Shown piece by piece: positions 1 through 26,023 of a DNA stretch of 26,023 nt. The position numbers and the translations under genes are program-made. The notes beneath the pieces were generated by a model. That model saw only the letters and a list, made by a program, of their open reading frames with translations. It made no database searches and was not told where the DNA came from. This DNA comes from a virus, in IMG/VR virus record IMGVR_UViG_3300031994_000473, positions 1-26,023 of that record; one strand, 5' to 3'. Position 1 is the stretch's first letter. Every line of letters starts with the position of its first letter.

Positions 1-126
1 AATCGCGGCATAAAAACAAGAATCGACTCTTCTTTTTTCCATATCAAGAGCAAGCGCAACTTCTTTAGCGGTTGCTCCATTATGTTCTTTAAGATAATTC
101 AAAATGCCGTAACTTATATCAGTCAT
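1..126 (-). CDS. 5' part (42 codons) of a small winged-helix protein gene, a second copy of 25801..26013 cut by the window edge
   Basis: ATG at 124-126 with GAGGAG upstream, 17 nt after the Tal stop. Nt 12-136 are identical to 25899-26023. Nt 1-11 differ at 2 positions: one Ser->Tyr change and one synonymous change. Confidence 0.6.
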   Translation of the reverse strand, partial: MTDISYGILNYLKEHNGATAKEVALALDMEKRRVDSCFYAAI

Positions 127-136
127 AATAATTTTA
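12..136. repeat. Terminal direct repeat, copy A (exact 125 bp; 136 bp with 2 mismatches)
   Basis: Base-by-base comparison with 25899..26023. Positions 1-11 versus 25888-25898 differ at positions 4 and 11. Confidence 0.9.
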
Positions 137-143
137 TCTCCTC

Positions 144-1163
144 TCAATTCAATGTAGCTAAGTTGGCTTTTATGTAAGCAATTTGCCTATCCGTATTATT
201 ATTAAATTTTGTCAGCATATCCGCAAAATTAACAATAGCATTAGATAACTAAATCTTATCACGTTCAGGTTCATGCGGATAGCGGTAAATTTTCTTTACC
301 CTTTGCTTTTGTTTTGTTCTCTTGATTTTATCAACTAATATAATATCATCTCCTAATTCTACCTAAAGCGGGAGCCCGCTTAATTGTAACTCATAACCTA
401 CAATAGGAGATGAATAATAATCTAAATATGCTTCAGCCATCATCTTTAGCTGTTGTGCCTATTCAATATCATCTTGTACCCAATATTGCGGCAAATATTT
501 GTCACAATATGAAAAATTCTATATTATAGGGCTTCCGTTGTTAATTGCAGTTATATTCAATCCATTTTTTCCTATTGGATATAAAACTGTTGTAAAATCG
601 TAGCACTGACTTTGTTTTTTGAGCAACTTTAACCGCAGCTCATTAGAAAAGTACATACCGCGGTTTTCCCCCATATGTCCGTAAACCCTAACTACCTTTT
701 CTTTTGTATCAAAGAAGATTTCTAAATTAAAATCCTCTTTAATTTGCTGAATAGCTTCATACGGGGTCGTCCTCAACGTATGATACTCAACCTCATTTAA
801 GTAAGTGCATTGATAATCAAGAGTCCAACTAGTACCTTCAAGAGCAGTAGTTAATGCTCCCTCAATATTCTTTTCTATAATATCATATACTGGAATTAAA
901 GTATGTTTTAATTCTTCAATGTCCGGAGAACAATAGATAGACATATACTTATAGTTATTTTCATTTACTTCTTTTATAACATAATTATAGTCTGCGGTTG
1001 TCACATATCCTTCCTATTGAACAACGGCTAAGTTCTATTCAGTCACAGGAAGTTTAAATGACAATGTCTTTAGCCCCGTATCTAACGAGGCTATGACACA
1101 CATATCCTTACTTTTATCGACTAACTTTAAGAAGTTTTTATCCGTATCATATATTTTAATCAT
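144..1163 (-). CDS. Tail-associated hub protein (Tal/gp27-like N-terminal region), 339 aa, 6 in-frame TAG
   Basis: Track ORF 519..1004 extends in frame through TAG at 1035 and 1014 upstream, and at 519, 459, 363 and 249 downstream. It starts at ATG 1161-1163 (AGGGGG upstream) and ends at TGA 144-146. The N-terminus MIKIYDTDKNFLKLVDKSKDMCVIASLDTGLKTLSFKLP and the motif YRYPHEPERDKI(TAG)LSN resemble the N-terminal region of Gram-positive siphophage minor structural/Tal proteins. Confidence 0.75.
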
Positions 1164-1175
1164 GCGGTCGCCCCC

Positions 1176-1544
1176 TTAAATGTATCTAGGTTGATACTAA
1201 ATACTTACACTAGAGGTTGCCGCATCAGTAATTGAAATTTCATTTATACCAGGTAATAAGCGAGGAAATTCCCAAGCATCATAGTCATTAAAAGCTGGTT
1301 GATCATCTTTTGTGACAGTGCGGTTGATACCATCTAATACAAGAATGGTATTTCTTTGCACTCTTGATACTCTAATAGGTTCATCACTTAAACCTGTAAT
1401 TTCCATTTGCATGACATCATTCTGGGGAACAATGGTCAGGCGGCAAGGGGCTGCCGCCGTCCCATTATTAATAATTGTAAAATCACCAGAAGAGTCAAAT
1501 TCAATAGGAAGATAAGTTTTTCCTTGTAATGACTCTATATTCAT
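1176..1544 (-). CDS. Distal tail protein (Dit) C-terminal domain encoded as a separate 122-aa protein, 1 in-frame TAG
   Basis: ATG 1542-1544 follows AAGGAGG. TAG at 1197-1199 is followed by YQPRYI and then TAA at 1176-1178. The sequence IINNGTAAAPCRLTI...LVLDGINRTVT...DAWEFPRLLPGINEISI...QPRYI fits the C-terminal half and typical ...RY(L/I) end of Sipho_tail/Dit proteins. Confidence 0.7.
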
Positions 1545-1561
1545 TGTTTTCCTCCTTATAA

Positions 1562-4500
1562 TTATCCTGCTACCGTATCTGTTGTATCAATCCAACCCAT
1601 ATTATTAACATATTTCCAGGCTTCATCTTGAATTAAATATGTTTGAGATTCAATTCTATCACCATTTTGATAAGTATGAACTAAGTATGCATCATTAGCT
1701 ATTGGTAATGAATATGCTTTTAATTCATCTTGTGAAACAATATAGGTTCTTGGATTTGCATATGTACCAGTATTTTTATTTGTATCTGTTTTCTTAATCC
1801 AACTATCTCCTGTCCAGTATAAAGTGCCATCAGTTGAATTTTCATATTTTGCAAAAATTGGTTTAACAGTTTCAGATTGTAATGTAATTGGATAAATATC
1901 CAATTTAGGAATCTTATAACTATTTAGGGAAGTTGCAGTATTATGCTGATTTCCTTTTAAAACTACCGTATCTTTTATTTCAGTTAATGTATCTGAATAG
2001 GTTTCAGAAGGTAACAATTCTAATTTATAAGAACGATACCATGCTTTGCCATCAGACCACCATAATCCTTCCACTCCATGTTCCTGATCATTTGTTGTAT
2101 AAAAGATAGGAATAACTATATCCTTATTAAGAGGATTAAATTTAGTAGAGTAAATTGAAGGTTGTTTATAATTATTAGTTCCATTATCTTTAACCTTTGC
2201 AAAATATTTAACATTATTTTTATCATATATCATAACATCATCTAATGATCCTACTGGAGAATCTGATGTATCAATAATTTGATCAAATAAAAATGGTTTA
2301 ATACCTGGGTCTGTTGTCCATGTTCTATATGGATCTTCACCCCTTGGATGTGCAGTATATTCATAAGAACTAGTGTGGTATACAGCTCCAGTAATTAAAT
2401 CTACTAAACAATGTGATCCTAATTTTTTACCATTGAAAATATATCCTTTTGGTAATGGAACAATATATTTTTGTAAGAAATAATCTTTCCAAACTTTAAA
2501 AGCATAAAATACTGGATAGTAGAATCCATGAGCAGAGCTAAAGCCATTTGCAAATATTCCTTGATGATACCAATATACTGGAGAAGGTTCATATATATTA
2601 CTACTAGGTGGTGTATATGAAAATTGACTTTGAGGAATTAAATTACGATTTTCTATAACTGCTCTTTTTGAACTATTAGTATTAGATTTTACAAGTTCAT
2701 CATTAAATTTAAACCAATAGAAACCATCCTAAAGAGGATTAGTGTTTAACTCTAATTTCTAAATTCCATCTATTGCATAGTCATCATGAGTATCTAATTC
2801 ATCACTTAATTTAACACCATAATATCCTGAATGATAATTACTTACGTTATCTTTATAACCTATAACTAAACTAATATCTCTTTTATTTGAAAAATTAGTA
2901 ATTAAAATTTTTTCAAGATTTCGACTATTAGGAAGTAAAAGCTGGCTAAAATTATAAAGAGTGAAAGTAGGATTATCATTATAACCATCTAATCGTGTGA
3001 ATAAAGATCTATAAGAACCGTCTTCACTGGTAAAGTTTGTAGCACAATTAGTTTGTAACTCCCAATCCCACATTCCACTATTTGTTGCACCGGGTGCATT
3101 ACTCCAATTGTCTAAGATCATAGTAGACATTGGAATATAAGAATCTGGAGGTAAATATGCTCTATATTTTCCATAACTTGGAATATATAAAATCCTTTGA
3201 ATTGCTGTGGTAATAATCTCTTCAAAAGTAAAGTAAACATCTTCATTATCATATGAACGAGGATTCCATAAGAATGTTCCATCTTCATATTGTTCTGAAG
3301 GCTTAAAAAGATTTTTATCTACTCCAAAGAAATCCCAAGTTAATCTAATAGGAGTATCTCTATATAAAGTGGGCTTAATTGGTTTTGTATAGTCATTTTC
3401 CATAATCACAGGATGAACTATATTAACATCTTCAATAAGAACGAATCCCCTAGTTGCGGAATCCGCTTCTAACCATACTAGGAAATAAGATTGTCCTTGG
3501 CTATTTACTCTAACTTCCTCGTCTTCAGTAACAAATCTAGTTCCAACAGGATAAGGTCCTTTTCTTCCATCCTCTCTAAAATCACCGTAGGAATATAAAT
3601 AAGTTTCAACTTTAGCAGTTAATAATCCATTATCCGCTTTATATCGTTCATATTTATTACTTGTTTCAATAAAGACATCCCAATCAGGATTCCAGTTGCT
3701 TATGCTACAAGAGAAAGCTGTTCTGCCCACTTCATATTGTTTAAAGCTTCTTTGAGTTGATACTTTAAATGGACCAAAATCAATTAATTTAACATTTCGC
3801 TTTTCAATCCAGCCCTAATCAATTTGATAAAGATTATTTTCAAAATCTAAAAGAGTAACCTCAGTTCCCTCTTCTATTGTATCTAAAACCTAAGATTTAT
3901 CTGCATTATAAATCGAAGAATCTCTTAAAATAATTCCTCTACCATAATAATCTCCAGTAGGAATAATAGAACCATTATGAATAATTTCTAATCCTTCTGG
4001 TAATGAATCTAATCTTGGATAAGTATCTTGACTCATATCGCTAGGATAATTATTTGTTTGACCTAACGCAAAGAATACATATTTTTCTTCAATATATTGA
4101 TTATCTTCTACTTCAACTTTTGATTGAATAGATACCTACTGTTGAGGAGTAATCCCAGAGTAAGTTATAGTAGCTTCTGGCGTTTCTGGCGCAAACCAAA
4201 TTACCTAATCTGTTGTATTTTTAACAATAGGATAATCAAGAGCTAAAGAAGAAGCTCTGGTAATAGTATAATCATCTTCAATATCAATATACCCATCTTC
4301 AGTTTCTAACATATCTGAATTGTCTGGACTAGCACCATAAAACTCAAAACTAGTATTAGCTTCATAGGTTTTAACTAAAGTCTATTTTTCAATATCTTCA
4401 TAAACATTAATTGCGGTGTTAGCTACAGCTAAACCAGTAGCGGTAGATTCTGTAAAGTACCTATCTTTATAATATACAACATTATAAGCATAAATAGTTT

Positions 4501-7500
4501 CTGGATATATAATATCTACATTATGTGCAGCGGTTAATTCTACACGATTAAAATTACCATTATAATTCATTTCGCCAGAATCATGGAAACGTAATTTATA
4601 TTGGTCTATTCCAAAATGATCCCCAAAGAAATCACTGAATAATTTAGACCAGCTATTGATTGTATTCCAATCAAGTTCATCTAAATGAACTACTCTAGCT
4701 TCTAATGCATTATATAATCTACCAGATTGATTAAATGATAAATCTTCTGTTTTAATCCAAGATTGATGTTCTGGACTCCAAGCCCAAAGTCTATCAATAG
4801 TCAATTTAGTAACAGTAATCATAGTTGAATATGGAACTGTAACTAAGTTTTCTGGATTTTCATCATATTCAGGATTCTGCCCTGGGCCAATAGTAGGATG
4901 AGTGTATCCAAGAATAATCCATCCTTTTGGATATTCTTTTAATCTACCCCAACCGCGTTTTTCTTCGATAACAGTATAACGTCCTTTATCTACGATTTCC
5001 GCCAATGTGCTATAAGCACGACCAGGTCCTTTATGTACCGCACAATAGTTAACATCAACATCTACTTGATAAGGAATGAAATAATCTTGTTTTTCATCCT
5101 CATATAATGCGGTATGATAATGATTAATATATTTAATTGCGCCGTTAGGATTTAAGACTCTAGCGTCTAAATCGCAATCTAAATAATTAACATCATCTTC
5201 ATTTAATGTAATTAAATCATCAGAGGCACCGCCGCGATAATAGTTAATATATAATAAATCTGGCTTCTCTTGTGCGGTAAATTCATCATAAATAACAACA
5301 GGTGATGGTGCGTCGATGAAACCTTTAATATCATTATCAATTAATAACTGTTCATTAAAAGCAATTCTACCTGGCTTATAATCTTCAGATGCATATAAAT
5401 CAACATCAATACCAAGATCTTCCAGTGAACTAGCATTTTCTATATCTTTAATGTTATAGAAAATATCTCTGCTACCAACTCTCTTGTTTCCTCTATAATA
5501 TTCAACGGTTTTAGTGAATGTTAATAATTTATAATAAATATTAGCGGTTCCTGCATTAAATATTGTCTTTAATACACTTTTCCCAACAACCTAACTATTT
5601 AAATTCCATGTTCCATATAATTCATCATTATCTAAAGATAATTTATGAGTAGTTGAATTGTACCATAAATTTTCATATCCTTCAAAATCATAATCTACAT
5701 CAAACATTCCGTTTGTATGGAAGTCATCTGGTTTAAAATCATTATATCTTAAAACTTCATAAATAGTTTCATTAGATTCTCTAAACATTACAGGAATATC
5801 AACATAATGATTGCCTAAGAAAGCATTATTTTCATCATAATAATTAATGACAATTTTACCAAATAAAGTCCAGTCATTACAAACATGGAATGGCGCAACC
5901 TAATGTGGCTAAACCTTTTTAGTTTGATTTGTATATGTCCACTGTCTATCCTCAGTGTCAATAGAGGAACTATAAGTTCCACCCTCATTAGCATTACTAA
6001 AGAAAATTTCAGTTACACGATCAAACATACCATTAGCTGGAGCTGTAAAATCATAAATTTTATCACCTTTAGCTACTGGAACTAAATCTCTTACTAATTT
6101 ATCCCTATCCCATATTTTTAAATACCATACTGCCATACGTGCGGGAACAGGGAAAGAATCAACTGGCATACCTTCATAAGCTATTGAAATAGTTTTAGAG
6201 ATATTTTGATAATGCCAACCTTGTTCAGAACTATCTGGTATAATAGTTGTAGACTCTACAGTAATCGAATTCTGGAAGCCAGTTTCATAAGGGTTATTAC
6301 TTAGTAAAACAGATAAACCATGTTGATTGAAGGTTCTTGCTCCAGTTAAAACTCCAGTAACTCGGAAAGGTTTCCAATTAATTTTACCAGTTTCTGGATT
6401 TCTAGTTATACCCAATGTTAAACTTCCTTTAGGTTTACCTCTCCATTCCCATAAATCAGTGTCTTGATTAACTAAATTATGAAATTCTGGATGCATTGAA
6501 TTTGTATAATCATACACTTCTGTATAATTATTTGGAGCATCTAAAACCATAGTTAAAGGATTACCAGCAACAAAACGAGCATGATCAATTGAACAACTAG
6601 TTATTTCTCCAAAAGGTGCGTTTGCTCTAAAATTAACCTCTGCATCTTGTATCATTCCCTTAAATGGTGAATCCTATTGAGAATCTGCGTCAAGAAAACT
6701 TGGATTAATATGTACAGCAGGACTTTTTATGCTATTTTGTGGAACAGGAATTGCACCAAACATTGGATACTAACCATGTCCCTAATTTTTGTCAACAGAA
6801 TAGGTATAGAATAAAGGAACAGATCTTAATTCTTCATCTAGAATTGAAGCTTTTCCTCGCCTCATTCCTCCATGTAATTCCCTCACTGATTCAATTGATC
6901 CATTAAGAGCATACCCATCAGGTGCATAAGGTGTTGCATGACTATTATATGAATGACCGTCCACATGAGTTGGTTGACCTAACTATCCACCATAATCCCA
7001 AAGTGTTGTCATGGTATGTCCAATATATCTAAAATCGCCGTCGTTGTTCTACGCAGCAGCTGTATAAGGTTTAGTTTGTTTTCCTAAATCCTTAATTGTT
7101 TCTTCAAAATTTTGAGCAGGATAATATCCAAAGAATCCTGCAAAATCATTACCCTTAAGTGAATAATGACTAGTTCCACCTATAGATCCTTGATTTAAAC
7201 AATAAGCCTTTATTTCACTTTTAAGCCTACCAATCTATTTAGGAGTATATCCTAAATCTAAATAAGGAGTGATAATATTTGCTTTTGGGTAGAAGGTTTG
7301 TTCCCCAAGTGAATTCCAATATGGAACAGGTAGAGTTCCCCAAGTTCCATGTGGATATCTTCCTGGAACCCATTCATCTCTAGCTATTGCTTCAGTACCA
7401 AAATCTCCTCCTTCAGCTATTTGTGTATATCCTTCAGCAGTATCAAACCAAAGAATCTTACTCGGCCAATCTTCATCATCAGGATCATGCGGCTATTCTT

Positions 7501-10500
7501 TAGTTTCATAAATAATATCTACATGACCTGCTTCAACAAGAGAAGTAAATGTATACCATGCTGTTTCGTCCGCTAAAACACCGCCCCAACAAATAATTGG
7601 TTTGTAAGCATTAAAATATGCATTTGGTAATTCATCAGTTAATTGGAACTGTTCATCATCATGCCAATCATCTACTTGAACTTGCCAATAATTGTTACCG
7701 ATTAAGTTTTCTTCATCCACCTCATCCGTATAATATCTAATTTCAATGCTAAACGGAGCAGGATCATATAAGATTTTATATTCACTCTTTAAAACATCTG
7801 GTGAGTAAAGATTTTCATCTTCAAGATACCATAAATAGTTTAAACCTTCTTTATAGAAACTTACACCAGATATTGCGGATTGCGGTCTGAATTGATTAAA
7901 ATTAATATGTTTTTCAATAAACTCGCCATCTGCAAATTGAGTTTCATCAAGAGATAAGGTAACTTCCCCAACCTTCTCATAAGACTCAAGTTTATTAAGT
8001 GGAGTAATACCAAAGACCTTCCGCCAATAGGTAACCTTAGTTGTATAAACTTGCGGATTCTCAACCTCTGTATATACAATAGTATAAGGTGAGTGTTCTA
8101 AGATACGTCTTAGTGTTACTTTTGTTTCAGGATATTCATAATTAACTTTATAATTATCCGGTTTATATTTTAATAACGGAACTATCTGTCCAAAAGTAGG
8201 AACTGATAAGAAATCTTTTTCAGTAAGTTCAATCACGTCTGATGTGATTAAATTGTTTTCATCATCTGCGCTATCTCTATAATAATTAACAGTAATATTA
8301 TAACTAATACTTTCATAATTAACATGGAATGTAAAGTTATTTACATTATCAAAATTAATTACTCCAATATCAGCTAAATTAACAATCGTACCACTGCCGC
8401 AATAGTTAGGTTGAAAATCATCCATAAATAAATTGGTGCTTTCAATCCAGTTACTATTTTCTGTGAAATCACTACCTCTAAAGTAATAGGTAACTGTATT
8501 AAATAATACGTTATCTTTATAATAATTTACATAACATTTTCCAATCTTATGCTCTGGATCATCATCTACTACATCAGGGTCATCCATGATATTAAAACTA
8601 TTTAATCCAGTTACATCTTCAAAGAAATTCTCTGTAATCTTATCGTAAAGACAATTACTTGGAGCAATCTTATCACCAATCTTATCAAAGAAAGCAACAG
8701 GGACAAAGTCACGAATTAACGTTCCGTCATAATAAATTTTACAACTCTTAATACCAACACCTGCAATACCGCCTTTATAAGAACCGTTATAATCACAAGC
8801 AAATAAATAAAGCGGGAGGTTCATTGGTACATGATTAGATTGAACTAAATGTGTAAAAGTAATAGTACCATAACTGTACCCTTCTCTTGTAGAAGAAGAA
8901 ATACCAGTATTAGAACTAAAACCTTCAGATGCATTTTCTTCAACAATTAATTCTGGTGTGCCGCGGCCAGCAGCTACGTTAAATGTATTAACACCAGTCA
9001 TTTCAGCCTTAGGACCGAATTGAGTATTATTACGATACTTAATATAATAATTACAATCCGCAGATACAGAACCGAATAAATAAGCATCTCCTACATTTAC
9101 ATTGTAAAGAGGTTCAGTGTCAAATACTCTGTAAGTATCTACTAAAACTGTTAATTTACTAACATCATCGCAAGTTACTCCAGTATTGATATAAGCATGA
9201 TTTAATGTCCAGTTTGTATATAAATTCTCAAACTCACCCATATCATTATGTTGTAAGAAAAGAATTCTATGTGGATAGTTAATTCCACTTGGATCAACTG
9301 GTTCACTTTCAGCTGTGTACACAATATCAATAGATTCAACAGCTCTCAATGCAGAGAAATTAACTGGTCCAGTATATTGTACCTCACCATTGCCGCAATA
9401 GCTAGGTTTGAAACCATTAATATCTAATCCTAAATCAGTTAAAGTAGTATTAGTTGAAAAACTTAATACAGTATAATTTAAAGTATCTGATCCAATCCAG
9501 TTCTCATCAGCTACTTCATCTGTATAATATCTAACTGATGTGCTATATTGAGTTGCGGAATATAATACATTATATGTTCCTTGTATATCTTCAAAAGTTA
9601 AAATAGCAGTTGCGGATTCCCCATCTATAATACCATCATTATAATATTCAGGTTTATGAGCATTTAAGTCAAACAATGAAGCTAAAGTAACTCCACCGCC
9701 CACCTGTGATTCTTCTATTGTTATGATAGAAGTATTAATGGTACTATACATTGATGCTAACTCTTGTTTATACTTAATAACAATACTTTTAGTACGAACT
9801 ACATCAACTTCTTTATATGCAATCTTAATTGGTGCATTTGCTAATAATGTAGCTAATTCAACAGCACCTTGATAAGAGTTATCTGCATCAAAAATATATC
9901 CTTCTGGACGTAATAAGTTAATATTAACAATCTGTGCAAGCGCAGGTGAATTTAAGAATTGAGTGGCATTAATTTGAATAGTTCTTGATTCAAGCTTTTC
10001 ATCATCTTGATAATAATCAACAACTAAATCAAAATCTTTTGCACTATAAAATATTTGTAAAACACCCACATCAATTAAATCATCAAAAGAAGTAATTGAA
10101 CCTTGTACGTTAAACAATCTTCCAGAATTATACTCTACAGTTAAATACCTATCTAAATCAATATTAACCGCCGCTAATATATCTTCCGCATTATCATAGC
10201 TAGTTTTATATTTAATTAAATGTGTATGAGTTGTAATTCTACTCCAATTTGGATAAGAACCATAAAAATATTCCACATACACGCGGTTTTCGGTTAATGG
10301 ATAATTAATCTGTACTGACGTTGGTAAAGTTTCAAAAGTAAGTTCTGTATTAGAATCCATGTTAACTACAGTTCCAGAATTATAATACTTTTGAGGTTTA
10401 TATAGGTCTTTATTAATAAAGTCCGTAATTTTTGCTCCGGGAAGAACATCACCTTCGCCGATAATATAAACAGTGGCGTCTTTAAATTCAAATTGACCGC

Positions 10501-17250: not shown

Positions 17251-17253
17251 TGA

Positions 17254-17553: not shown

Positions 17554-17554
17554 A

Positions 17555-17854: not shown

Positions 17855-17874
17855 GATTAAACTCCTTTATCAAA

Positions 17875-18786
17875 TTAAGGATTTGTAGTTCCGCCTTGAG
17901 TACCGCCACCTTCGGTACCTCCGCCTTGAGTTCCACCTTCGGTACCTCCGCCTTGAGTTCCACCTTCGGTACCTCCGCCTTGAGTTCCACCACCAGCAGC
18001 GGCAGCACCAGTTGTAATCTTAACAACCTTAGTAGCATCAGTAAGAGCAACGAGGGCTACTTTACGAGCAAATACTTTATTGTTACGGTAGTTGGCATCT
18101 CTTTCCTGTTCAATTTCAGAACCTTTCTTAATGAAAAGAGTAACTGCTTCAGCGTTAGCAAGGAATGCAGTATTTTCAGGAACTGCCTTAGAAACAATTA
18201 CAGGAACACCACATACTGTTCCAATGTAACCAGTTCTTACGAAATCTTCAACATATTTAAGGTCATCACCAAGAGCCTTTCTAACTTTGGCTTTGTCACC
18301 TGTGTTGATAAGAATGAAATAACCTGTTTCATCTTCAAGATCTAATTTAGCAATAGCATCAACAACAGCATCAAATGTAAGTCCTGTTGCGGAAGCGTCA
18401 TATGTAATAGTAGCCTTACCAAATTCCGCAATCGCTTTTCTTGTAAAGTCATTTGTCATGCGGGTTGCAAGTCCATAAAGACCAGCATCTACTACCATAG
18501 GATCTTTCATTTCTTGTTCATCGTAGTATTGGAATCTACCCTGAGTAACACCTACAACGTAGTCCACATCAGTGAAGCTAACTTCGATGTCATCTGTATT
18601 ACCTTCACCCATTTCAAGGTCTTCAACATCACCAGTAGAAGTGTAAGTATGAATAGTCTTAATCATACCTGCATTTTCTGTAAGTGAAGTATCTACTGTC
18701 ATATAAGATTGAAGATTAACATTAGTAGTAAGTAAATCTTCAAGTTTATTTTCTAATACAAAATTTTCATATACTTTATGAGCCAT
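17875..18786 (-). CDS. Major capsid protein (HK97-fold, N4-gp56-like family of Firmicute phages) with a Gly/Thr/Gln/Glu-rich repeat tail; no TAG
   Basis: Intact 303-aa ORF after the scaffold gene, with AAGGAG RBS and a TAA stop. Its position, size and sequence style (…GRFQYYDEQEMKDPMVVDAG…FIKKGSEIEQERDANYRNNKVFARKVALVAL) fit a major capsid protein. Confidence 0.75.
   Translation of the reverse strand: MAHKVYENFVLENKLEDLLTTNVNLQSYMTVDTSLTENAGMIKTIHTYTSTGDVEDLEMGEGNTDDIEVSFTDVDYVVGVTQGRFQYYDEQEMKDPMVVDAGLYGLATRMTNDFTRKAIAEFGKATITYDASATGLTFDAVVDAIAKLDLEDETGYFILINTGDKAKVRKALGDDLKYVEDFVRTGYIGTVCGVPVIVSKAVPENTAFLANAEAVTLFIKKGSEIEQERDANYRNNKVFARKVALVALTDATKVVKITTGAAAAGGGTQGGGTEGGTQGGGTEGGTQGGGTEGGGTQGGTTNP
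17891..17991. repeat. 27-bp tandem repeat (~3.6 copies) encoding GTEGGTQGG units at the capsid protein C-terminus
   Basis: ccgccttgagttccaccttcggtacct is repeated head to tail. The first copy carries a 3-nt insertion. The repeat forms a GC-rich island in an AT-rich genome. Confidence 0.9.
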
Positions 18787-18805: not shown

Positions 18806-19375
18806 TCATCGAGTTGTCATCTGTTTATACAACTCTGGATTTGTTCTATATAATTCGGCTTGCTGTGATACTGTAAGTTTTGCGAACTGTTCTTTAGTCA
18901 TGCCAGTTTGCGATACTGAACTTCCCTTTGGAGCGGGAGTCGCTAACCTAGAATTTACAGCATCCGCAAGCGCAGCCTTCCATGCCTTCTCAAAATTGTT
19001 AATGTTTTCCATCATACTTTCGGCATCGTCGGTCACAATGTAATCTACAAATTGTACTGGCAGCCCTCTATCCGCAAGAACCTTTGATGCACTTAACTTA
19101 TTCTGTGTAAGTGCAAACTCTCTTTCTTTTGCTTCGAGTTCTGCAACTCTTTTTTGAAATTCATATTCTTTCTTTTGAGCTTCATCCATATCACGCAATT
19201 TCTCAGCTTCTGCGCGTTCATTTTCAAATTTCTGTTTCTGTTTCTTAAGTGCGGATGTCACTCTCCTATCAGCTTCCTGTTGCAGAAGTTTATCAACTTC
19301 TTCTTGTGTATAGGTCTTAACCTCTTGAACTGTTTCCTCTGCCCCAGTCTCAACTGTTGTTTTATTTTCTTCCAT
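18806..19375 (-). CDS. Capsid scaffolding protein (DUF4355-like), 189 aa; no TAG
   Basis: Intact ORF directly upstream of the capsid gene. It is charged and coiled-coil rich (EEVDKLLQQEADRRVTSALKKQKQKFENERAEAEKLRDMDEAQKKEYEFQKRVAELEAKEREF), with a TGA stop. Confidence 0.7.
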   Translation of the reverse strand: MEENKTTVETGAEETVQEVKTYTQEEVDKLLQQEADRRVTSALKKQKQKFENERAEAEKLRDMDEAQKKEYEFQKRVAELEAKEREFALTQNKLSASKVLADRGLPVQFVDYIVTDDAESMMENINNFEKAWKAALADAVNSRLATPAPKGSSVSQTGMTKEQFAKLTVSQQAELYRTNPELYKQMTTR

Positions 19376-19477: not shown

Positions 19478-20011
19478 TTATTCGATTTTGTCCTAAAATT
19501 TCCAAACAAAACCTTTATGTTTTAAACCTTGATTCATAGCCATAGATAAGGTATTTTTATTATACCCAGTGGCTGCAGCAGCCTTAGCTACAGATTCGAA
19601 ACGACCAACTTCATTTCCACCTGAATCGTATTGAACAATATCTTTGTTAAAATGTTCTTTTCGTTTGTCAATTCTACGTTTTTGTACATTACCATAGTTT
19701 ACATTATATTTTGATGTACACCATTCAAGGTTTTCAACATTATTATTTTCCTTATCCTAATCAATGTGATTTATTTGCGGCAACCCCTCTGGATTAGGAA
19801 TAAAAGCTTCTGCAACAGCCCTATGAACATATTTCTGTTTATATTCATATTTACCAGTAGCTAACTTAACCTTTAAATATCCTACTCCTTTTTGAGTGCG
19901 GCTAGAATAAGGTTTAAGAATTCGTTGTGTTTCTTTATTGCGGACTCTTCCTTGTGTGCTTACTTCATATCTAGGAAAATCCTAAATTGTTTTCCAGGTT
20001 TCTTGTTTCAT
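19478..20011 (-). CDS. HNH homing endonuclease (NUMOD4/HNH_3-like), 177 aa, 3 in-frame TAG
   Basis: ATG 20009-20011 follows AAGGAG. TAG at 19982, 19757 and 19493; TAA at 19478-19480. The sequence WKTI(TAG)DFPRYEVSTQGRVRN...GYLKVKL...YVHRAVAEAFIPNPEGLPQINHID(TAG)DKENNNVENLEWCT is the classic phage HNH_3 signature. Confidence 0.8.
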
Positions 20012-20095
20012 AATCTATTTCTCCTTTGAATAATTCTTTCTACCATTATTCAAAATTATAAGAAATAAATTATATAAACTTGACCAAATTTTTTG

Positions 20096-20953
20096 TCAGT
20101 TTTCCTTTTCAAACTAGTCATATGCACAAAAGGAACAAGCACAATTAGGATGATATGGAGGTAAATCAACTCCAACATCAGCTTCTGCAAGCGGGATAGC
20201 CTATCCTACATAATCTAAGCAAATCCCTCCGCATTCCGCATCACCAATTATTTCCACATATTTAACACCACTCTATAAATAGGTATCTTTAGTGGCTTTG
20301 CTATAAATTGCCATTGTTTCGGTTCTAATAAGCCGTCTAGCTTGATATGCAGCAAATCCTGTTAGCTTTTGAAGTTCTTCAGTCATTTTATCTAATGACC
20401 AACCATTGTGAATTCCCTACAACAGAACAGAGCGAAGCTTAGAATCAAGAGTATCAACAATGTAGTTTGATCTATCTTTAAATGTTTTCTTGTCTTCACA
20501 CCATGGCTCTAATACTTTCTTCTTAATATCAATAGGAAGAATGAAATTCTTATTACCAACGGATTGCGCGGTCGCCGCTGCCGTCATCTAATAATCTAGA
20601 ATTAACCATGCCATTAATCTGTTGTTCTGTAATTCTTTTAAGTCACGCCGCATTTGCCTAAGGGTCTATTCCATCTAGGTAATATGCCCTCCCCGCATCA
20701 ATGAATGTGCAAGCGCTTGGTATCGTTTCATATCAATCGATCCCCGCTTAAAATAAAACGGGAACTCGTCTTTATACAATTTTTCTAATTTGATTAAGAC
20801 CTATTTATAGTCTTTAACTATATCGTTTTCAACTTCTTTAGCATCCGCTAACAACTAAAGAACTAAATCAAGCTCGTCTTGATAACTCTACTGATTATTG
20901 TAATCACTCTTCTTCTTTATTATCTTTTTCTTCTTCTTCTTCTCTTGACTCAT
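20096..20953 (-). CDS. Head morphogenesis protein, SPP1 gp7 / Mu F-like, 285 aa, 10 in-frame TAG
   Basis: ATG 20951-20953 lies inside the portal 3' end. TAG at 20888, 20855, 20801, 20675, 20666, 20588, 20417, 20273, 20201 and 20114; TGA at 20096-20098. I scanned the frame and found no TAA or TGA. The C-terminal IIGDAECGGICLDYVG(TAG)AIPLAEADVGVDLPPYHPNCACSF matches the family motif. Confidence 0.75.
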
Positions 20954-22277
20954 CCTAATCCTCTCCATTTAATCCCAATCTTACGTCATAGAAAGGATTA
21001 GCTTCTTGCTCTTTATCGAGTCTTTGAATTTCAGCTTCAACATCTTCAACAAAAGGAAGTTGAGCAAGTAAAGTCTCACGAGATACTTTACCAGATAATG
21101 TACTAACCATATTTGCAATTTCGGTATCATTTGAAGGAAGATTACGAGTAAATGTAATATCAATAGCTCGCCAATCAAACGCACTACCTTTTAATGCGGC
21201 GATGTTAAATATTAATTCAATCCTTCTCTGCAATCCACGTTTAAATTTACGCTCTTTAATTGCAACGACGTTTTCCATTGGTAATGTTTTATATTTAATT
21301 GCTACTCCTGAAGCATTTCCGCTAAACGCAGTATCGCTCATATCAGGAGTTTTAGAGAACTTATGAATATCTCTATCTAATCTATTCTTAACATTCTCTA
21401 TTGTTGTATCTGACCCTTGCTTAGTAAGCCATTTGGCATCAGAGTTTTCATCTAATAAAATGATACGATTCTCTTTCATAGCGGCGACATCGTCTTTATC
21501 CGCATTGAGACCAGATAAACAAAGATATGCATCTACAAAATAATCAAAGTCATCAAGAGAATCAGATTCCATCTTATCATAAGCGTCAATTAACGAAAGG
21601 ACTGGTTCAAAATCTCCAATCTCTTCTTCGTTATTTTCAAATACTACAATAGGAACAGAACCAAAATAATGCGGCGCCTCCGCTTCAAAGGTCAGAGTAC
21701 TCAAGTTCGCATCACTCTTATAATGCATCACTTTTGTATCTGAATAAACCTAAACTCTATAATACACTTCTTCAGATTCGATATCTTCACATTCAAAATA
21801 GCGGATGCCGTATAAAAGATCTTCATTAAGAGTATCGTCATATACAAGTACAATCTCTCGTGGATCCAATCTCTTTAGCCGCGTCTGCGCATCTTCATCT
21901 AAATAAACTAATTCAACAGCAAGACCAAAAATACTCATGTCTTTAGCTAACTCAATATTTTCATCTTGCTAATCAGTGTACTATAAAATCATTTTTAATT
22001 CATCCGCTGCTTCTTCAATTTCAGAAGAATAAGAAACACCCTAACCCATAAAATAACCTGTTAGAGTATCTGTAATGTAGCTTGCATACGGATGTGCAAT
22101 ATTATTACATGGAAGAGTCTCATCTGTTTTCATTCTTTGTAAAATAGGATTCTTCGCATGATAATAATTATCTAATTTATTAAGTCTAGCGATATCTCTC
22201 ATCCTATGTTTATCAATTAATTTCTTAATGATTTCAACAGTAAGAGGAGTCTATCTGCTTATCTTATACTGAGGCAT
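20904..22277 (-). CDS. Portal protein, SPP1 gp6 family, 457 aa, 6 in-frame TAG
   Basis: ATG 22275-22277 follows AAGGAGG. TAG at 22251, 22041, 21981, 21969, 21750 and 20955; TGA at 20904-20906. Motifs: KLIDKHRMRDIARLNKLDNYYHAKNPIL..., NNIAHPYASYITDTLTGYFMG(TAG)GVSY, and an acidic C-terminal tail. Confidence 0.85.
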
Positions 22278-22707
22278 CTTTGTCCTCCTTATCATTATAA
22301 ATCTCTCGTAATTCCTACATTAAATTATCAATATAACTATTACCGCCTTCATTCTTATAATGTTTATAGCGGCGTTCCAATAAATCCATTTGCATACTAT
22401 CTAATATACTTGGATCTTTTTTACATTGTTTATACAACATTACAATCCAGCTTTTTATACCATCTAGATCGCTGACTAAAAGTGAATCAAGCTTTTCGGT
22501 AATCTACTGTAATTGATCTTTTAGTCCCTTAACTTCCTACACAAGCCAGGTTAATAATTCTTTTTCATCTCGTACTTTATCAACCTGTTGAACAGTTTTA
22601 TTTTTAAAGAAGTCATACACTTCATAAAACTATTTACATGCTACTCCAAACATAAATAAAAATACAATAGTAAACTACAATGAATATTTTGAAAAGAACT
22701 AGACCAT
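22264..22707 (-). CDS. Membrane-anchored coiled-coil protein (holin-like candidate?), 147 aa, 6 in-frame TAG including codon 3
   Basis: ATG 22705-22707 follows AAGGAGG. TAG at 22699, 22675, 22630, 22537, 22504 and 22315; TAA at 22264-22266. It has a hydrophobic N-terminal segment FTIVFLFMFGVAC followed by heptad-like charged sequence. Confidence 0.55.
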
Positions 22708-22716: not shown

Positions 22717-23961
22717 TTATAGTCCTAATGCCCCTTTTGACATTGTTTGTAACTTTTTGCGGTAAGTACCACATTGTGTGCCGTATCTAGCTGCATCTAT
22801 CAAGTGACAAAATGCGTCAATGGGTTTATCGGTCCAATTATCAAACTTATCTTTATCAAAAGCATAATTAGAAAATTCTATAATCGCATTTTCACAAGAG
22901 GGATGAATCAATATCTCATACTCTTGAAGCTTGCGGATACCCTACATAATAGAGCCTTTGCCTTTCTTTGCGGGCTTCACTCTTAATATATCTAATTTAC
23001 CTAGTTCCGCAATTGAGCGTGGCTAAGCGCTGTCCGCATAAATTAAACACTTTTGATACCCACGATACTTAATCCATGCCGCCACCTATTCAAGAGTCTT
23101 CTGTGACTGATAAAACTAATCACAAAAATATATTCTTTTGTTCTCTTCATCTACTCGCATTACCGCAATAGCAGTAGGATCTTGCCAACCAAAGTCTAAT
23201 CCTATCCAAAGCGGAAAGTCAAGCTTCTTCACATCATATTGCTCAACCCGCCAGTTATCAAATACTAATCCCTATGATACTCCCCATTCCCCATCACCTT
23301 CGATGCGGAAACGTCTAGGATATTTAACTTTCATATCTTCAAAGACTTTAATATCATCCTCACCTAACCACTCGTTGCAGCGGTAGGTCGTGGTCATCGC
23401 TAATTTATTCTAGTCATTTGGCGTATCAAAGAAACGTTTTTTAAGCCAAATTTTATCACTCCAAGGGTTAAATGTAAATATTATTTGTTTAAAATAACCA
23501 GGAGGAAGCTAGCCCCTCAACGATAAGTCAATTTTATTAAAGTCTTCCTATGATGTTATTTGATAAGCCTATTCAATCCAACAGAGATTCAAATAACCAA
23601 CAGGAGCAGTAATAGAAGTAATTGAAAGTGGATTATCACATCCTCTAAAATAAATCTTTTGTCCAGTAGGCTAGTAAGTAGCTTCGAGCGGAGACACCGT
23701 GAATTTCCACAAATGACCCACTCCCAAGTTCTAAGCAGCCCACTTTAATTGTTTCCAGGTTGAATCTCGCTGCGTATTAAAGACTTGCCGCACCACCAAA
23801 CAATTGGATAGCGGATATTGCATCATTAAAAAAATAATCTTCATTGCGGCGGTCGTCGATTTCTTACTTCCACGAGATCCTTTCACCAATAGATAACGAC
23901 CCTTAAAGTTCCAAAATGCGTTATAGCCTTTACCTATCTTTTCACTTAGTCTAATTTCCAT
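22717..23961 (-). CDS. terL: Terminase large subunit, PBSX/Terminase_3-like, 414 aa, 11 in-frame TAG
   Basis: ATG 23959-23961 follows GGAGGA. The whole gene was translated by hand. TAG at 23731, 23671, 23569, 23548, 23509, 23410, 23272, 23116, 23086, 23023 and 22942; TAA at 22717-22719. Motifs: VKGSRGSKKST (Walker A-like), YFRGCDNP, LCWIE(TAG)A (Walker B), FTFNP, ADSA(TAG)PRSIAEL, KKGKGSIM(TAG)GI, HLIDAARYG. Confidence 0.9.
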
Positions 23962-24385
23962 CTGCGTCCTCCGGCAGATCATTTACAATAACAACTTGTT
24001 CTTTAACATTGGCTTCAATAGTAGACTTAGAAGATTGAACACCTAATTGCTTTTGTAATAAATCTAATGCCTTTAACTGAACCTGCGGAGTGTAGACCGT
24101 ATCGCCCTTCTCAGCGAAACCCATTTCTATTAATTTTCGAGCTACATTTTCTGCCCCAAAACCCAATGATTCAAGTATTTCTTGCTCTCTAATTCTCTTA
24201 TATTCTTGAACTTTTGGGTTTCTTAACACTTGAGATGCATTCTTACTATTCTTAATAGGTTCCCCTTTATCTCCATAAACTGCAATATAAGCAGCAACAG
24301 GATCATAAGGTAATGTAGAAATTAACCTTTCCACAAAAGCAAGTTGTTGTGGTTGTAAATTAGGTTTCTCTTTAAGTTCGACCAT
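23951..24385 (-). CDS. terS: Terminase small subunit, 144 aa; no internal TAG, ends at TAG (TGA 3 codons later)
   Basis: The second ATG (24383-24385) has AGGAGG 7 nt upstream. The sequence QQLAFVERLISTLPYDPVAAYIAVYGDKG...ASQVLRNPKVQEYK fits small terminases of the Terminase_2 type. The gene lies directly upstream of terL and overlaps it. Confidence 0.75.
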   Translation of the reverse strand: MVELKEKPNLQPQQLAFVERLISTLPYDPVAAYIAVYGDKGEPIKNSKNASQVLRNPKVQEYKRIREQEILESLGFGAENVARKLIEMGFAEKGDTVYTPQVQLKALDLLQKQLGVQSSKSTIEANVKEQVVIVNDLPEDADGN

Positions 24386-24435
24386 AGTAAAACCTCCTTT
24401 CATATAAATATGAAAATTTCTTCAATAAAATTATA

Positions 24436-24612: not shown

Positions 24613-24641
24613 ATCCCTAATCCTATTTTCTTTTGTTGCAA

Positions 24642-24723
24642 GGGTTTGGGGGCGAAGCCCACAAATCCCGCGCAGATTATATAGTATTTCAATGCGTGCC
24701 CGAAGGGCTAAGCTTTGAAATAC
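24642..24723. other. Two GC-rich imperfect hairpins, each with a GAA/UUC triloop
   Basis: In 24642-24669, gggtttgggggc-gaa-gcccacaaatccc forms about 12 bp with one bulge and one mismatch. In 24684-24723, the outer stem gtatttcaa/ttgaaatac encloses gccc-gaa-gggc. There is no flanking U/T tract. Confidence 0.6.
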
Positions 24724-24740
24724 GTTATTTTATATATTGT

Positions 24741-24829
24741 ATTATTATATTATGTGAGTTATTTTTTGCTCACTTGTGAGAAATTTTTTACGCACATGTG
24801 AGAAAAATTTTGCTCACATGTGAGAAATT
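24741..24829. repeat. Iteron/operator array: three full CTCAC(A/T)TGTGAG palindromes at ~22-bp spacing plus two flanking half-sites, separated by A3T6-like spacers
   Basis: tatgTGAGttatttttt GCTCACTTGTGAGaaatttttta CGCACATGTGAGaaaaatttt GCTCACATGTGAGaaatttttt GCTCAC. The array starts 18 nt after the stop of the wHTH gene 24848..25213. An AT-only block at 24711-24742 lies next to it. Confidence 0.85.
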
Positions 24830-24847
24830 TTTTGCTCACCCAATCTT

Positions 24848-25213
24848 TCAATCTTGAGTTTTCACAACGTTTACCGCAATACTTTCTGTTACAGGTGGAT
24901 TATCATAAAAGTCCCAAACTTCACTATCTGCCCTTTTAATTAAAAAACCATTATCAATTAGTTCCTTAATGGCACTAGTGTATGTTCTACGACTAATCCC
25001 CAACTCCGCAGTAACATCATTACTTGTCAAAAGAAAATGATAATTATTTGCATTTGCGGTTACAAATAAATAAATTTTAAGGGCGGAAGGTGTTAAAGTT
25101 TTCATAGCTATTCTTTCACCCTGTTGACTTCTAATTGAAAGTAAGTTATCTTTACTTCCTTTCTCTTGTGTTTTTACTGTTGTCTGGTATGCACCAGTTT
25201 GTCTTCCTGCCAT
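24848..25213 (-). CDS. Winged-helix DNA-binding protein, possible replication initiator/organiser, 121 aa; no TAG
   Basis: Intact ORF with AAGGAG RBS and a TGA stop. The wHTH-like segment is LTSNDVTAELGISRRTYTSAIKELIDNGFLIKR. The gene is adjacent to the iteron array. Confidence 0.6.
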   Translation of the reverse strand: MAGRQTGAYQTTVKTQEKGSKDNLLSIRSQQGERIAMKTLTPSALKIYLFVTANANNYHFLLTSNDVTAELGISRRTYTSAIKELIDNGFLIKRADSEVWDFYDNPPVTESIAVNVVKTQD

Positions 25214-25266
25214 AGCAATACTCCTTATCTCTTTTCTACAATAACTTTAATAATAATATCGTGTTC

Positions 25267-25464
25267 CTATTCAAATCTATCTAAATACTCGTCAAGTGCC
25301 GTCCAATATTTCTCAGGAAGATTGCGGTCACCCGCAAGTACATGATAGAGGAAGTCTGGATTGATATTTATTGCCTTCGCAACATCTTTATATTTTAACC
25401 CAGAAGTTGTTTTATTTGTTTTTAATCTTAAAACAAAATTTTGAGTTTCCCCATTTATATACAT
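25267..25464 (-). CDS. Cro/XRE-like helix-turn-helix regulator, 65 aa; ends at TAG
   Basis: Intact ORF with GGAAGGA RBS. The HTH-like segment is LKYKDVAKAININPDFLYHVLAG. The stop is TAG at 25267-25269, and the next in-frame stop is TAA at 25225-25227. Confidence 0.65.
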   Translation of the reverse strand: MYINGETQNFVLRLKTNKTTSGLKYKDVAKAININPDFLYHVLAGDRNLPEKYWTALDEYLDRFE

Positions 25465-25486
25465 ATATCAAAATTCCTTCCTATTG

Positions 25487-25516
25487 TTTATAAAAATCTG
25501 ACCAAAAATTCTACAA
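25487..25516 (-). promoter_or_regulatory. Weak candidate promoter (TTGTAG-18-TATAAA) just upstream of the Cro-like gene
   Basis: On the minus strand, -35 lies at 25511-25516 and -10 at 25487-25492. The match to consensus is poor. Confidence 0.25.
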
Positions 25517-25519
25517 AAA

Positions 25520-25550
25520 TAGGGAAAAGGGTGACGTTCCCTCTTCCCTA
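25520..25550. promoter_or_regulatory. Inverted repeat TAGGGAA-N17-TTCCCTA with an inner AGGG/CCCT pair; operator or RNA hairpin candidate
   Basis: Read directly from the sequence. It abuts the weak -35 element upstream of the Cro-like gene. Confidence 0.4.
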
Positions 25551-25766
25551 TTGGAGTGAAAGTTAATTGTAGAAAATTTTGGAGGACGCCAAAACTTTCA
25601 GTGACTTATGAGTAAAAAAGTGGTATTAAAAATAAAAATATAATAATTATAAAATATTACCAATAAGGTAAATAAAAGGAAATGGAGTGAAAGAAAAAAG
25701 TCTTTAAATAATATAGGAACCCAAATGAAAAAAATTATTACATACTACTTTTTTCTTTCTATATAT

Positions 25767-25795
25767 ATTATACCAAAAATTTTTTCATTAGTCAA
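25767..25795 (-). promoter_or_regulatory. Near-consensus sigma70/sigmaA promoter: TTGACT-17 nt-TATAAT with extended -10 (TGG)
   Basis: The minus strand reads aaaaTTTGACTaatgaaaaaattttTGGTATAATatat. It begins 5 nt after the wHTH TAA and points toward the Cro-like gene. Confidence 0.6.
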
Positions 25796-25800
25796 ATTTT

Positions 25801-26013
25801 TTACTGAATATAGGAAAGACCTTTTTCATTTAAGACTAAACTTGACGGAGTAACAGATTTATCTCTTTCCCCTAGACCTGCGCCCGCAATAGCGGCAGAA
25901 AAACAAGAATCGACTCTTCTTTTTTCCATATCAAGAGCAAGCGCAACTTCTTTAGCGGTTGCTCCATTATGTTCTTTAAGATAATTCAAAATGCCGTAAC
26001 TTATATCAGTCAT
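25801..26013 (-). CDS. Small winged-helix DNA-binding protein, 70 aa; no TAG
   Basis: Intact ORF with a TAA stop. The wHTH-like segment is ILNYLKEHNGATAKEVALALDMEKRRVDSCF. From the copy at 1..126, it lies immediately downstream of Tal. Confidence 0.65.
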   Translation of the reverse strand: MTDISYGILNYLKEHNGATAKEVALALDMEKRRVDSCFSAAIAGAGLGERDKSVTPSSLVLNEKGLSYIQ

Positions 26014-26023
26014 AATAATTTTA
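25899..26023. repeat. Terminal direct repeat, copy B
   Basis: Identical to 12..136. Confidence 0.9.

Follow-up and report, generated by a model that had tools for sequence, protein, structure and literature searches.

The stretch of DNA analyzed here, IMG/VR virus record IMGVR_UViG_3300031994_000473 in its full length of 26,023 nt (33.6% G+C; hereafter the window), carries the genome of a phage in which TAG codons lie in frame within most of the genes. The 26 retained genes are all encoded on the minus strand, are tightly packed, and are terminated by TAA (18 genes) or TGA (8 genes) and never by TAG (0). In the order of transcription, they encode helix-turn-helix (HTH) regulators, a Rep-like protein, the small terminase (terS), the large terminase (TerL), portal, MuF, an HNH endonuclease, scaffold, capsid, and adaptor/connectors, followed by a collagen-like fibre, a putative receptor-binding protein, neck, tail terminator, major tail protein, a giant open reading frame (ORF), the C-terminal domain of Dit, and Tal. 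Using terS, Terminase_3 TerL, SPP1 portal, MuF, DUF4355 scaffold, HK97-fold capsid, adaptor, tail terminator, major tail protein, Dit, and Tal as criteria, the window phage can be assigned by gene content to the SPP1-like tailed phages (Caudoviricetes) with a Terminase_3/SPP1-portal head module. About 96 in-frame TAG codons are distributed over 21 of the 26 genes. Under the standard code, minus-strand ORFs of at least 100 aa add up to 5,044 aa; with TAG read through, the sum is 8,644 aa, and the resulting proteins match full-length profiles, among them those of terminase, portal, and MuF. The window phage is a TAG stop-codon-recoded phage.

Comparisons of homologous sequences show that TAG encodes glutamate (Glu) in this phage, and not glutamine (Gln). 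Genome-wide, the codons at Glu positions are GAA (427), GAG (111), and TAG (97), which gives TAG a share of 15.3%. In an alignment of TerL with 120 homologs, three TAG positions are Glu in 120/120 sequences and a fourth is Glu in 117/120; of the TAG codons at invariant Glu positions, two (X138 and X145) belong to the ATPase half at the N-terminus and two (X289 and X320) to the C-terminal nuclease domain, and TAG stands opposite Glu at five of the six sites aligned to solved terminase structures (2wbn, 5oe8). Since the database homologs P0001 and P0002 carry a pipeline translation of TAG as Gln, the test of amino acid identity was repeated on the DNA of eleven relatives with the standard code; their residues at the window TAG sites are E (113), D (20), N (15), and Q (14). 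With the substitution pattern of each amino acid taken from the same alignments, the log-likelihood of TAG identity is -627 for E, -754 for D, and -792 for Q, favoring Glu over Gln by 165 nats; the TAG-to-E match rate is 0.43 (compare 0.50 for E-to-E), against 0.05 for TAG-to-Q. The exchange is seen in both directions among recoded relatives, in which the codons at window TAG sites are GAA (91), TAG (52), GAG (29), and CAA (12), while the window has E at 96 sites of TAG in these relatives; a terminase segment that is ‘CWIE[TAG]A’ in the window, for example, is ‘CWI[TAG]EA’ in the relative L001.

Other readings of the codon were considered and rejected. TAG as Gln (genetic code 15) is ruled out by the alignment counts, the likelihood, and the invariant catalytic Glu positions. 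A special read-through context, similar to the selenocysteine or pyrrolysine insertion sequences (SECIS/PYLIS-like), was discarded because the bases flanking TAG equal those around GAA and GAG, and pyrrolysine decoding because TAG aligns with Glu in an ordinary context and pyl genes were not seen among the matches of window ORFs to PHROGs and Pfam. An artefact or modified base converting GAG to TAG is inconsistent with the 111 GAG codons that remain, with the variation of TAG sites among relatives, and with an independent assembly that is 97.8% identical. The nuclear code in which UAR is Glu (table 30/Blastocrithidia) was rejected as TAA ends 18 of the 26 genes and is never in frame. The public proteins P0001 and P0002, which are members of the same clade (L001:5463-6713), were translated with TAG as Gln, and this Gln falls within the invariant Glu-Glu pair of TerL and at other conserved Glu positions; it is a systematic mis-translation. 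As TAG is Glu, the component missing from the window is a Glu-accepting tRNA(CUA) charged by glutamyl-tRNA synthetase (GluRS).

A first-pass annotation made by eye from the letters had claimed that no suppressor tRNA, release factor, or aminoacyl-tRNA synthetase gene is visible in the window, and our scans with ARAGORN, Rfam, and PHROGs/Pfam agree with it. ARAGORN, one of the checks proposed in that annotation, predicted no tRNA and no tmRNA in the window at default settings, and Rfam gave nothing at gathering thresholds and no match to tRNA, tmRNA, or tRNA-Sec even at E<=10. At relaxed ARAGORN thresholds of 80% and 70%, the window gave 12 and 69 candidates, respectively, as against 5-15 and 71-87 in shuffled sequence, and the number of these window candidates with a CUA anticodon was 0. 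A cryptic tRNA with an intron allowed was rejected, as the single CUA call demands an ‘intron’ of 2,275 nt and the rest are at the level of the shuffle. The non-coding stretches listed by eye coincide with our gene map and hold hairpins and four 22-bp iterons, with no cloverleaf; folding of the intergenic regions yielded hairpins only. A tRNA-CUA was likewise seen in none of the recoded relatives, whose fetched stretches contain no tRNA at all. The 26 retained ORFs, which do not include a 65-aa ORF at 25598-25795, were compared with PHROGs, and the nine to which PHROGs assigned no function, the giant ORF among them, also with Pfam; no release factor or aminoacyl-tRNA synthetase was found among the 26 ORFs, giant and unannotated ones included. 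A Seryl_tRNA_N match in a 147-aa protein (17.5 bits against a cut-off of 28.2) was treated as noise, the protein being coiled-coil-like by eye.

The window is a complete genome, either circular or terminally redundant. Positions 12-136 are identical to 25899-26023 (125 nt, exact), and the full terminal overlap pairs 1-136 with 25888-26023 at 134/136 positions, which gives a genome unit of 25,887 bp. Completeness is concluded from this overlap together with the gene order Tal, small HTH genes, Rep-like, terS, TerL, which in L001, L005, L006, and L009, all of them independent contigs, spans the junction, and the contig sizes of the relatives, which are 23-27 kb. The suspicion that the window is the whole genome was thus correct. 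An overlap of about 127 nt is what an assembler with k=127 leaves on a circular path, and therefore a physical terminal repeat is not required; related sheep-rumen samples were assembled with metaSPAdes (PMC6118326). Because the genome is complete and is without decoding machinery, TAG decoding must come from outside, as the first-pass annotation had reasoned.

The recoding is common to a clade. Seven recoded relatives share 83-92% TerL identity with the window, two from Logan (L001 and L002) and five from IMG/VR (L005-L009), and another recoded contig from a separate sample, L026, has 97.8% DNA identity over 10.3 kb; at least eight related contigs are recoded alike. The sisters L010, L011, and L012 (and L023, by partial match), on contigs of 20-26 kb, have 71-76% TerL identity and the standard code. 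Because sisters this close retain the standard code, the switch to TAG recoding is recent. Of these contigs, L007 and L011 are from sheep-rumen metagenomes (PMC6118326). Another standard-code relative, L003, is embedded in a contig of 159 kb (ENA ERZ28573767 scaffold_121, 159,835 bp), in which the head module is preceded by large genes and then a lysin (amidase) gene, and followed by tape-measure-like and Dit genes; this layout suggests a concatemer or tandem prophage copies and not a simple prophage.

The distribution of TAG across the genes is uneven. The capsid and scaffold genes have 0 TAG among 48 Glu codons (P ~3e-4 at a TAG share of 15.3%), and they are also without TAG in L001, L007, and L009, the three recoded relatives whose fetched stretch covers both. 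TAG takes up 8% of the Glu positions of the giant ORF and 34-37% of those of the terminase, MuF, and chaperone-like genes. A slow or leaky codon, avoided by the most abundant proteins, is consistent with this distribution. In L001, L005, and L007-L009, the Rep-like gene (0 TAG in the window) carries 1-3 TAG close to its N-terminus, and one TAG is present in the 70-aa HTH gene of L007-L009; at one such site, ‘IRSQ*GERIA’ in L005 corresponds to ‘IRSQEGERIA’ in L006. As TAG occurs in these putative early genes, the decoder must be resident in the cell before phage gene expression. The model of Borges et al., in which late genes and lysis are switched by recoding, was accordingly rejected for this clade, given that Rep-like and HTH genes carry TAG in the relatives, the TAG-free genes are capsid and scaffold, and no lysis genes were identified.

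The gene map (all genes on the minus strand) is described in the order of transcription. A small HTH regulator of 70 aa (25801-26013, 0 TAG) is followed by an AT-rich intergenic region (25465-25800) with no tRNA, inside which lies the dubious 65-aa ORF, which is hydrophobic, and by a second small HTH regulator of 79 aa (25225-25464, 1 TAG). The Rep-like gene (24848-25213, 121 aa, 0 TAG) encodes a Rep-initiator/DnaD-like winged-helix protein (phrog_270, PF13730, weak RepL). The largest intergenic region (24613-24847) contains no tRNA; it has two stable hairpins and the four iterons, which are tandem 22-bp palindromic repeats of the ATGTGAG-N8-GCTCAC type (24752-24839) directly downstream of the Rep-like gene and are probably an origin or operator. 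The small terminase (23942-24403, 153 aa, phrog_51) has 1 TAG, three codons ahead of its stop, and the large terminase (Terminase_3, 22717-23982, 421 aa) has 11 TAG, with those at invariant Glu positions among them. The 147-aa protein (22264-22707, 6 TAG) has a hydrophobic N-terminus and a coiled-coil-like rest, both as judged by eye. The SPP1-type portal (20904-22295, 6 TAG) and the MuF-like minor head protein (20096-20968, 10 TAG) were identified by PHROGs, with a match to phrog_64 at 6.5e-149.

Between MuF and the scaffold lies an HNH/NUMOD4 homing-type endonuclease gene (19478-20053, 4 TAG; phrog_59, 1e-45), which is 31-33% identical to its counterparts in the relatives, as against 50-80% in the flanking genes, and L003 and L004, both standard-code, do not have it; a mobile homing endonuclease is the probable interpretation. 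The scaffolding protein (18806-19375, 189 aa, 26 Glu codons, 0 TAG; phrog_172, 4e-40) is followed by the major capsid protein (17875-18786, 303 aa, 22 Glu codons, 0 TAG; phrog_544), the C-terminus of which (17875-18010) is a Gly/Thr-rich repeat, GGGTQGGGTEGGTQ... The head-tail connectors (16921-17854) comprise proteins of 109 aa (1 TAG) and 99 aa (3 TAG) and the adaptor of 99 aa (1 TAG; phrog_132). Two further PHROGs-annotated genes (14040-16921) encode the collagen-like tail fibre (15254-16921, 555 aa, 4 TAG), which has long G-X-Y runs with TAG within some of them, and the putative receptor-binding protein (404 aa, 3 TAG). The contig L026 is 97.8% identical to window positions 7450-18466, except that 14343-15108, inside the putative receptor-binding gene, does not align, which looks like an exchange of the receptor-binding domain as a cassette between near-identical genomes.

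The tail genes continue with the neck/tail completion protein (12978-13616, 2 TAG), the tail terminator (12563-12967, 4 TAG), and the major tail protein (12190-12600, 3 TAG), all from PHROGs matches. The usual slot for the tail chaperones and tape measure (11446-12193) holds two small ORFs of 181 aa (9 TAG) and 66 aa (2 TAG) without a tape-measure match; these are all that lies between the major tail protein and the giant ORF, and no tape-measure protein was found among the window ORFs with PHROGs or Pfam, while the standard-code sister L010 has a normal one. The giant virion/tail-associated ORF (1562-11446, 3,294 aa, 18 TAG) takes up 38% of the genome and is retained in the recoded relatives L005 and L009; a weak SH3_3 (Pfam) and an amidase C-terminal-like stretch (PHROGs) are its only recognizable domains. 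A separate C-terminal domain of Dit, the distal tail protein (1176-1544, 122 aa, 1 TAG), matches phrog_33 at 2e-17, with PF22768 SPP1_Dit in the L001 ortholog; L010, unlike the window with its split Dit, has a Dit of 238 aa. Tal, a Prophage_tail-like tail-tip protein (144-1163, 339 aa, 6 TAG), matches phrog_18110 at 1e-60, among tail families. No endolysin, holin/lysis protein, integrase, or DNA-replication enzyme was recognizable in the window by the PHROGs and Pfam scans. L010 is likewise without a recognizable endolysin among its scanned ORFs, and ORFs of 260 aa and 784 aa in it are unannotated.

The nearest cultured terminases, at about 50% identity, are from phages of Streptococcus (Streptococcus equinus), Bacillus, and Staphylococcus, and strong Shine-Dalgarno sequences precede the window genes; both support a Bacillota host. 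A megablast of the window against cultured phages gave no match, the Rep-like protein had no match in plasmids, and the NCBI-sourced homologs are on one highly fragmented assembly.

To find candidate suppliers, we searched IMG/VR, the GTDB species representatives, and JGI metagenomes with a pattern combining a Bacillota tRNA-Glu-type D-arm and a CUA anticodon. The first-pass annotation had named three possible sources of decoding in trans: the host, a helper or co-infecting element, and a host whose own code reads TAG. For two of them there are now candidates, namely chromosomal tRNA(CUA) genes derived from tRNA-Glu in Lachnospiraceae and Glu-like tRNA(CUA) genes on larger rumen phages. Among 185,579 GTDB species representatives, 18 loci match the pattern and 13 of them hold a genuine tRNA(CUA). 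The cultured isolate Lachnoclostridium phytofermentans KNHs2131 carries, on a 618-kb contig (L174, NZ_JPOF01000002.1; L174:4659-4870), a tRNA(CUA) (64.3 bits) in tandem with a tRNA-Glu(CUC) (64.1 bits), the sole difference between the two being anticodon position 36 (C36A). The pair lies between rpsU/alaS and polC, and each gene has, by eye, its own promoter-like -35/-10 upstream; no mention of this chromosomal amber-suppressor-type tRNA was found in a literature search. A related tRNA(CUA) lies beside infC, rplT, and polC in a Lachnospiraceae metagenome-assembled genome (MAG; L179), and in 8-kb stretches around the tRNA(CUA) of both L174 and L179 the genes are readable without TAG read-through. 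At three further loci (L166, L176, and L177), whose surroundings look chromosomal, the tRNA(CUA) has a D-arm of the tRNA-Glu type, and no synteny with alaS, polC, infC, or rplT was found around other tRNA(CUA) loci. Judged from these sequences, the tRNA(CUA) genes that can be regarded as securely Glu-derived are those of L174 and L179 only.

In IMG/VR, 17 contigs (2.9-235 kb) match the pattern, and ARAGORN confirmed a tRNA(CUA) in all 17; ten are from the eight sheep-rumen metagenomes that also gave L007 and L011, and others share samples with L005 and L012. The clearest of them, L155, comes from the sample of L007 and has a heavily TAG-recoded locus. Comparison of its glycosyltransferase with four solved homologs places TAG at the conserved Glu of their ‘E-V-I-V-D-D’ motif, and the acceptor stem, D-arm, and 4-nt variable loop of the L155 tRNA(CUA) are as in the tRNA-Glu of Bacillus subtilis. 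In the tRNA-bearing phages, TAG is exchanged with GAA nine times as against CAA three times and CAG once, leaning to Glu in a small sample; nearest-neighbor typing of the isotype of phage CUA tRNAs was tried and discarded as too noisy to decide. In JGI metagenomes, 114 loci match the general pattern and 94 hold a tRNA(CUA). Several loci from these searches are of separate interest. In the metagenome contigs L275, L277, and L293, the tRNA(CUA) is near-identical to an adjacent eukaryote-like tRNA-Gln(CUG), and these contigs may be from gut/rumen ciliates reading UAG as Gln, unconnected to the phage. On the 1.46-Mb contig L245 (Ga0308158_10000004), which has the size of a chromosome, the D-arm of the tRNA(CUA) is short and atypical, and this tRNA may be a bacterial tRNA-Pyl. 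Arrays of 14 tRNAs in an Erysipelotrichaceae MAG contig (L162) and 18 in an Anaeroplasmatales MAG contig (L167), with encoded CCA ends, include a tRNA(CUA) with a U1-A72 pair (tRNA-Gln-like), in what is either a bacterial cluster or a mis-binned large phage.

We are confident that a Glu-tRNA(CUA) is supplied in trans, whatever its source, and it is probable that TAG is read by a Glu-charged tRNA(CUA) that is already in the cell, most likely encoded by the chromosome of a Bacillota host, with a resident element as the alternative. In this scheme TAG is an ordinary Glu sense codon in a clade of ~26-kb SPP1-like siphophages, taking up ~15% of Glu positions, with only TAA and TGA as stops. The decoding tRNA could have originated in one step from a duplicated tRNA-Glu(CUC) gene by a change of C36 to A, by which C34, U35, and the tRNA body would be kept for GluRS. 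In many Bacillota, GluRS also charges tRNA-Gln, and GlnRS, the glutaminyl counterpart, is absent, hence there is none to mischarge a CUA tRNA. Because the Bacillota GluRS charges tRNA-Gln as well, and so tolerates C or G at position 36, we infer that it would charge the C36A tRNA with Glu. Suppression of UAG probably competes with release factor 1 (RF1) or depends on a scarce tRNA, and such inefficiency would be the reason that the most highly expressed genes, capsid and scaffold, avoid TAG. As a tentative and more specific form of this scheme, wild Bacillota (e.g., rumen/gut Lachnospiraceae) may constitutively express a chromosomal tRNA-Glu(CUA) and translate UAG partly as Glu, and a clade of small tRNA-less phages may have adapted to them by changing ~15% of Glu codons to TAG.

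Several observations weigh against a chromosomal supplier of this kind. That GluRS charges a tRNA-Glu with a CUA anticodon is an assumption. No direct phage link to a tRNA(CUA)-bearing bacterium was found, whether as CRISPR spacer or prophage form, and a terminase relative was not found in GTDB genomes with the patterns used. The chromosomal examples are few, about five among the 185,579 species representatives with a narrow pattern, and the exact L174-type anticodon arm has 0 matches in JGI metagenome contigs. In the rumen samples with the clade, tRNA(CUA) genes were found mostly on phage contigs, and the isolation source of KNHs2131 was not found, including in the Hungate1000 paper and its supplements. 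The D-arm pattern is also not strictly that of tRNA-Glu, as tRNA-Gln and tRNA-Cys share the D-arm in one array, and because some tRNA-Gln and tRNA-Cys genes have it in common, the isotype of most phage-borne tRNA(CUA) is uncertain.

In an unlikely but substantial alternative, a larger co-infecting or resident phage with a tRNA array supplies a Glu-type tRNA(CUA), and perhaps replication and lysis too, such that the small phage is helper-dependent and its recoding gates expression. The 17 tRNA(CUA)-bearing IMG/VR contigs, ten of them from the sheep-rumen metagenomes that yielded clade members, are in agreement with this, as is L155, which combines a tRNA(CUA) with a TAG-recoded locus and TAG at a conserved Glu in the same sample as L007, and the window itself has no recognizable genes for lysis, integrase, or DNA-replication enzymes. 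Nevertheless, sharing a rumen sample does not establish a shared host, the isotype of most of these tRNAs is uncertain, and obligate co-infection would be an unreliable means of decoding for ~96 essential codons. The standard-code L010 is equally small with no recognizable lysis gene, so a small genome without lysis genes does not imply a helper, and the window encodes the full set of head, packaging, and tail genes, unlike known satellites; a phage satellite was rejected on the same gene set.

It is quite improbable, and already counted within the resident-supplier reading, that the host has fully reassigned UAG to Glu, with RF1 lost, a tRNA-Glu(CUA), and in-frame TAG in its own genes, and that the phage mirrors this code. 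Such a host would account for TAG in all gene classes, early genes included, for a TAG that is never a stop (18 TAA, 8 TGA), and for the absence of decoding machinery across the clade. However, TAG is avoided in capsid and scaffold and makes up only 15% of Glu codons, resembling an inefficient codon, the genes beside the tRNA(CUA) of L174 and L179 need no TAG read-through, and sister phages at 71-76% TerL identity retain the standard code. No UAG-reassigned bacterium is known, as all known bacterial reassignments involve UGA according to Shulgina and Eddy (PMC8629427).

Two further explanations are weaker. That there is no dedicated suppressor, and that TAG reflects near-cognate read-through, genuine stops in a decaying element, or an artefact of sequencing or base modification, is very improbable; no phage tRNA was found, as it predicts, yet the ~96 in-frame codons occur in 21 of 26 genes and include catalytic Glu positions of TerL, and they are kept or swapped with GAA/GAG among independent assemblies, including L026 (97.8%). 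The persistence of 111 GAG excludes a blanket G-to-T artefact. Near-cognate read-through of UAG usually places Gln, Tyr, Lys, or Trp at the codon and not Glu, and an essential protein with 11 such sites could not be sustained by it. An incomplete genome with the suppressor tRNA on unassembled sequence is hardly credible: the overlap could be an assembly artefact and has two mismatches at its outer edge, but the junction gene order is common to L001, L005, L006, and L009, the relatives cluster at contigs of 23-27 kb, and none of the recoded relatives has a tRNA in its fetched stretch.

TAG recoding in phages is already known, and so is the lack of a suppressor tRNA in most recoded phages; as such tRNAs occur in only 35-40% of alternatively coded phages (10.1101/2021.08.26.457843), their lack here is not unusual in itself. 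What is new is that TAG stands for Glu and occurs in early genes, that an entire clade without tRNA genes has sisters using the standard code, and that tRNA-Glu(CUA) genes found naturally in chromosomes are plausible as suppliers. For phages with a code unlike that of the host, Borges et al. saw only TAG-to-Gln and TGA-to-Trp (10.1101/2021.08.26.457843), and in the Lak phage paper some TAG aligned with E and were yet read as Q (PMC8346664); we found no description of TAG as Glu in phages or bacteria in a literature search, with subscription journals outside its coverage. The code 15 gut phages (crAss-like, Lak, Garnet; 10.1101/2021.08.26.457843, PMC9523058) are like the window phage in having in-frame TAG in structural and packaging genes, close standard-code relatives, an animal-gut/rumen habitat, and, in many cases, no suppressor tRNA. 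They differ in that their TAG is Gln, in that their early and replication genes are in the standard code with a proposed late switch, whereas relatives of the window carry TAG in Rep-like and HTH genes, and in that the TAG-free genes of the window clade are those of the most abundant late proteins.

Outside code 15, the phages of Absconditabacteria/Gracilibacteria that use code 25 (TGA as Gly) resemble the window phage in needing no machinery of their own, as the cell decodes the codon; there, however, the codon is UGA and fully reassigned by the host, while the codon usage of the window suggests a partial or inefficient suppression of UAG. In eukaryotes with UAR as Glu (peritrich ciliates, table 30; Blastocrithidia, PMC12153298), UAG is similarly read as Glu by a tRNA-Glu with an altered anticodon, but these codes are nuclear and reassign UAA too, whereas TAA is the main stop here (18/26) and the genes are those of a bacterial phage with Shine-Dalgarno sequences. 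Laboratory amber suppressors (supE, engineered tRNA-Glu(CUA)) are like the C36A gene of L174 in arising by one anticodon change in a duplicated tRNA gene; unlike them, the L174 gene is natural and chromosomal, has its own promoter-like sequence, and belongs to a wild Lachnospiraceae, and the phage clade appears dependent on decoding of this kind.

These observations widen the set of stop-codon assignments in phages beyond TAG-to-Gln and TGA-to-Trp, and pipelines which hard-code TAG as Q would annotate a clade with TAG as Glu wrongly at functionally critical residues; if the assignment is true, translation under ‘code 15’ places Gln at catalytic Glu positions. A clade lacking decoding genes, with TAG present in its early genes too, contradicts the model of a late switch by the phage’s own suppressor and points to amber-suppressing cells. 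The chromosomal tRNA-Glu-derived CUA tRNAs, such as that of KNHs2131, make the question of who supplies tRNA-less recoded phages experimentally testable. There are consequences for host prediction, as the host must supply a tRNA(CUA), for metaproteomic databases, and for the use of natural Glu-inserting amber suppressors as tools. In essence, if the proposed decoding is true, this phage clade would represent an undescribed prokaryotic code variant in which TAG is Glu and decoding is left wholly to the host, which would tie the phage to suppressor-bearing strains.

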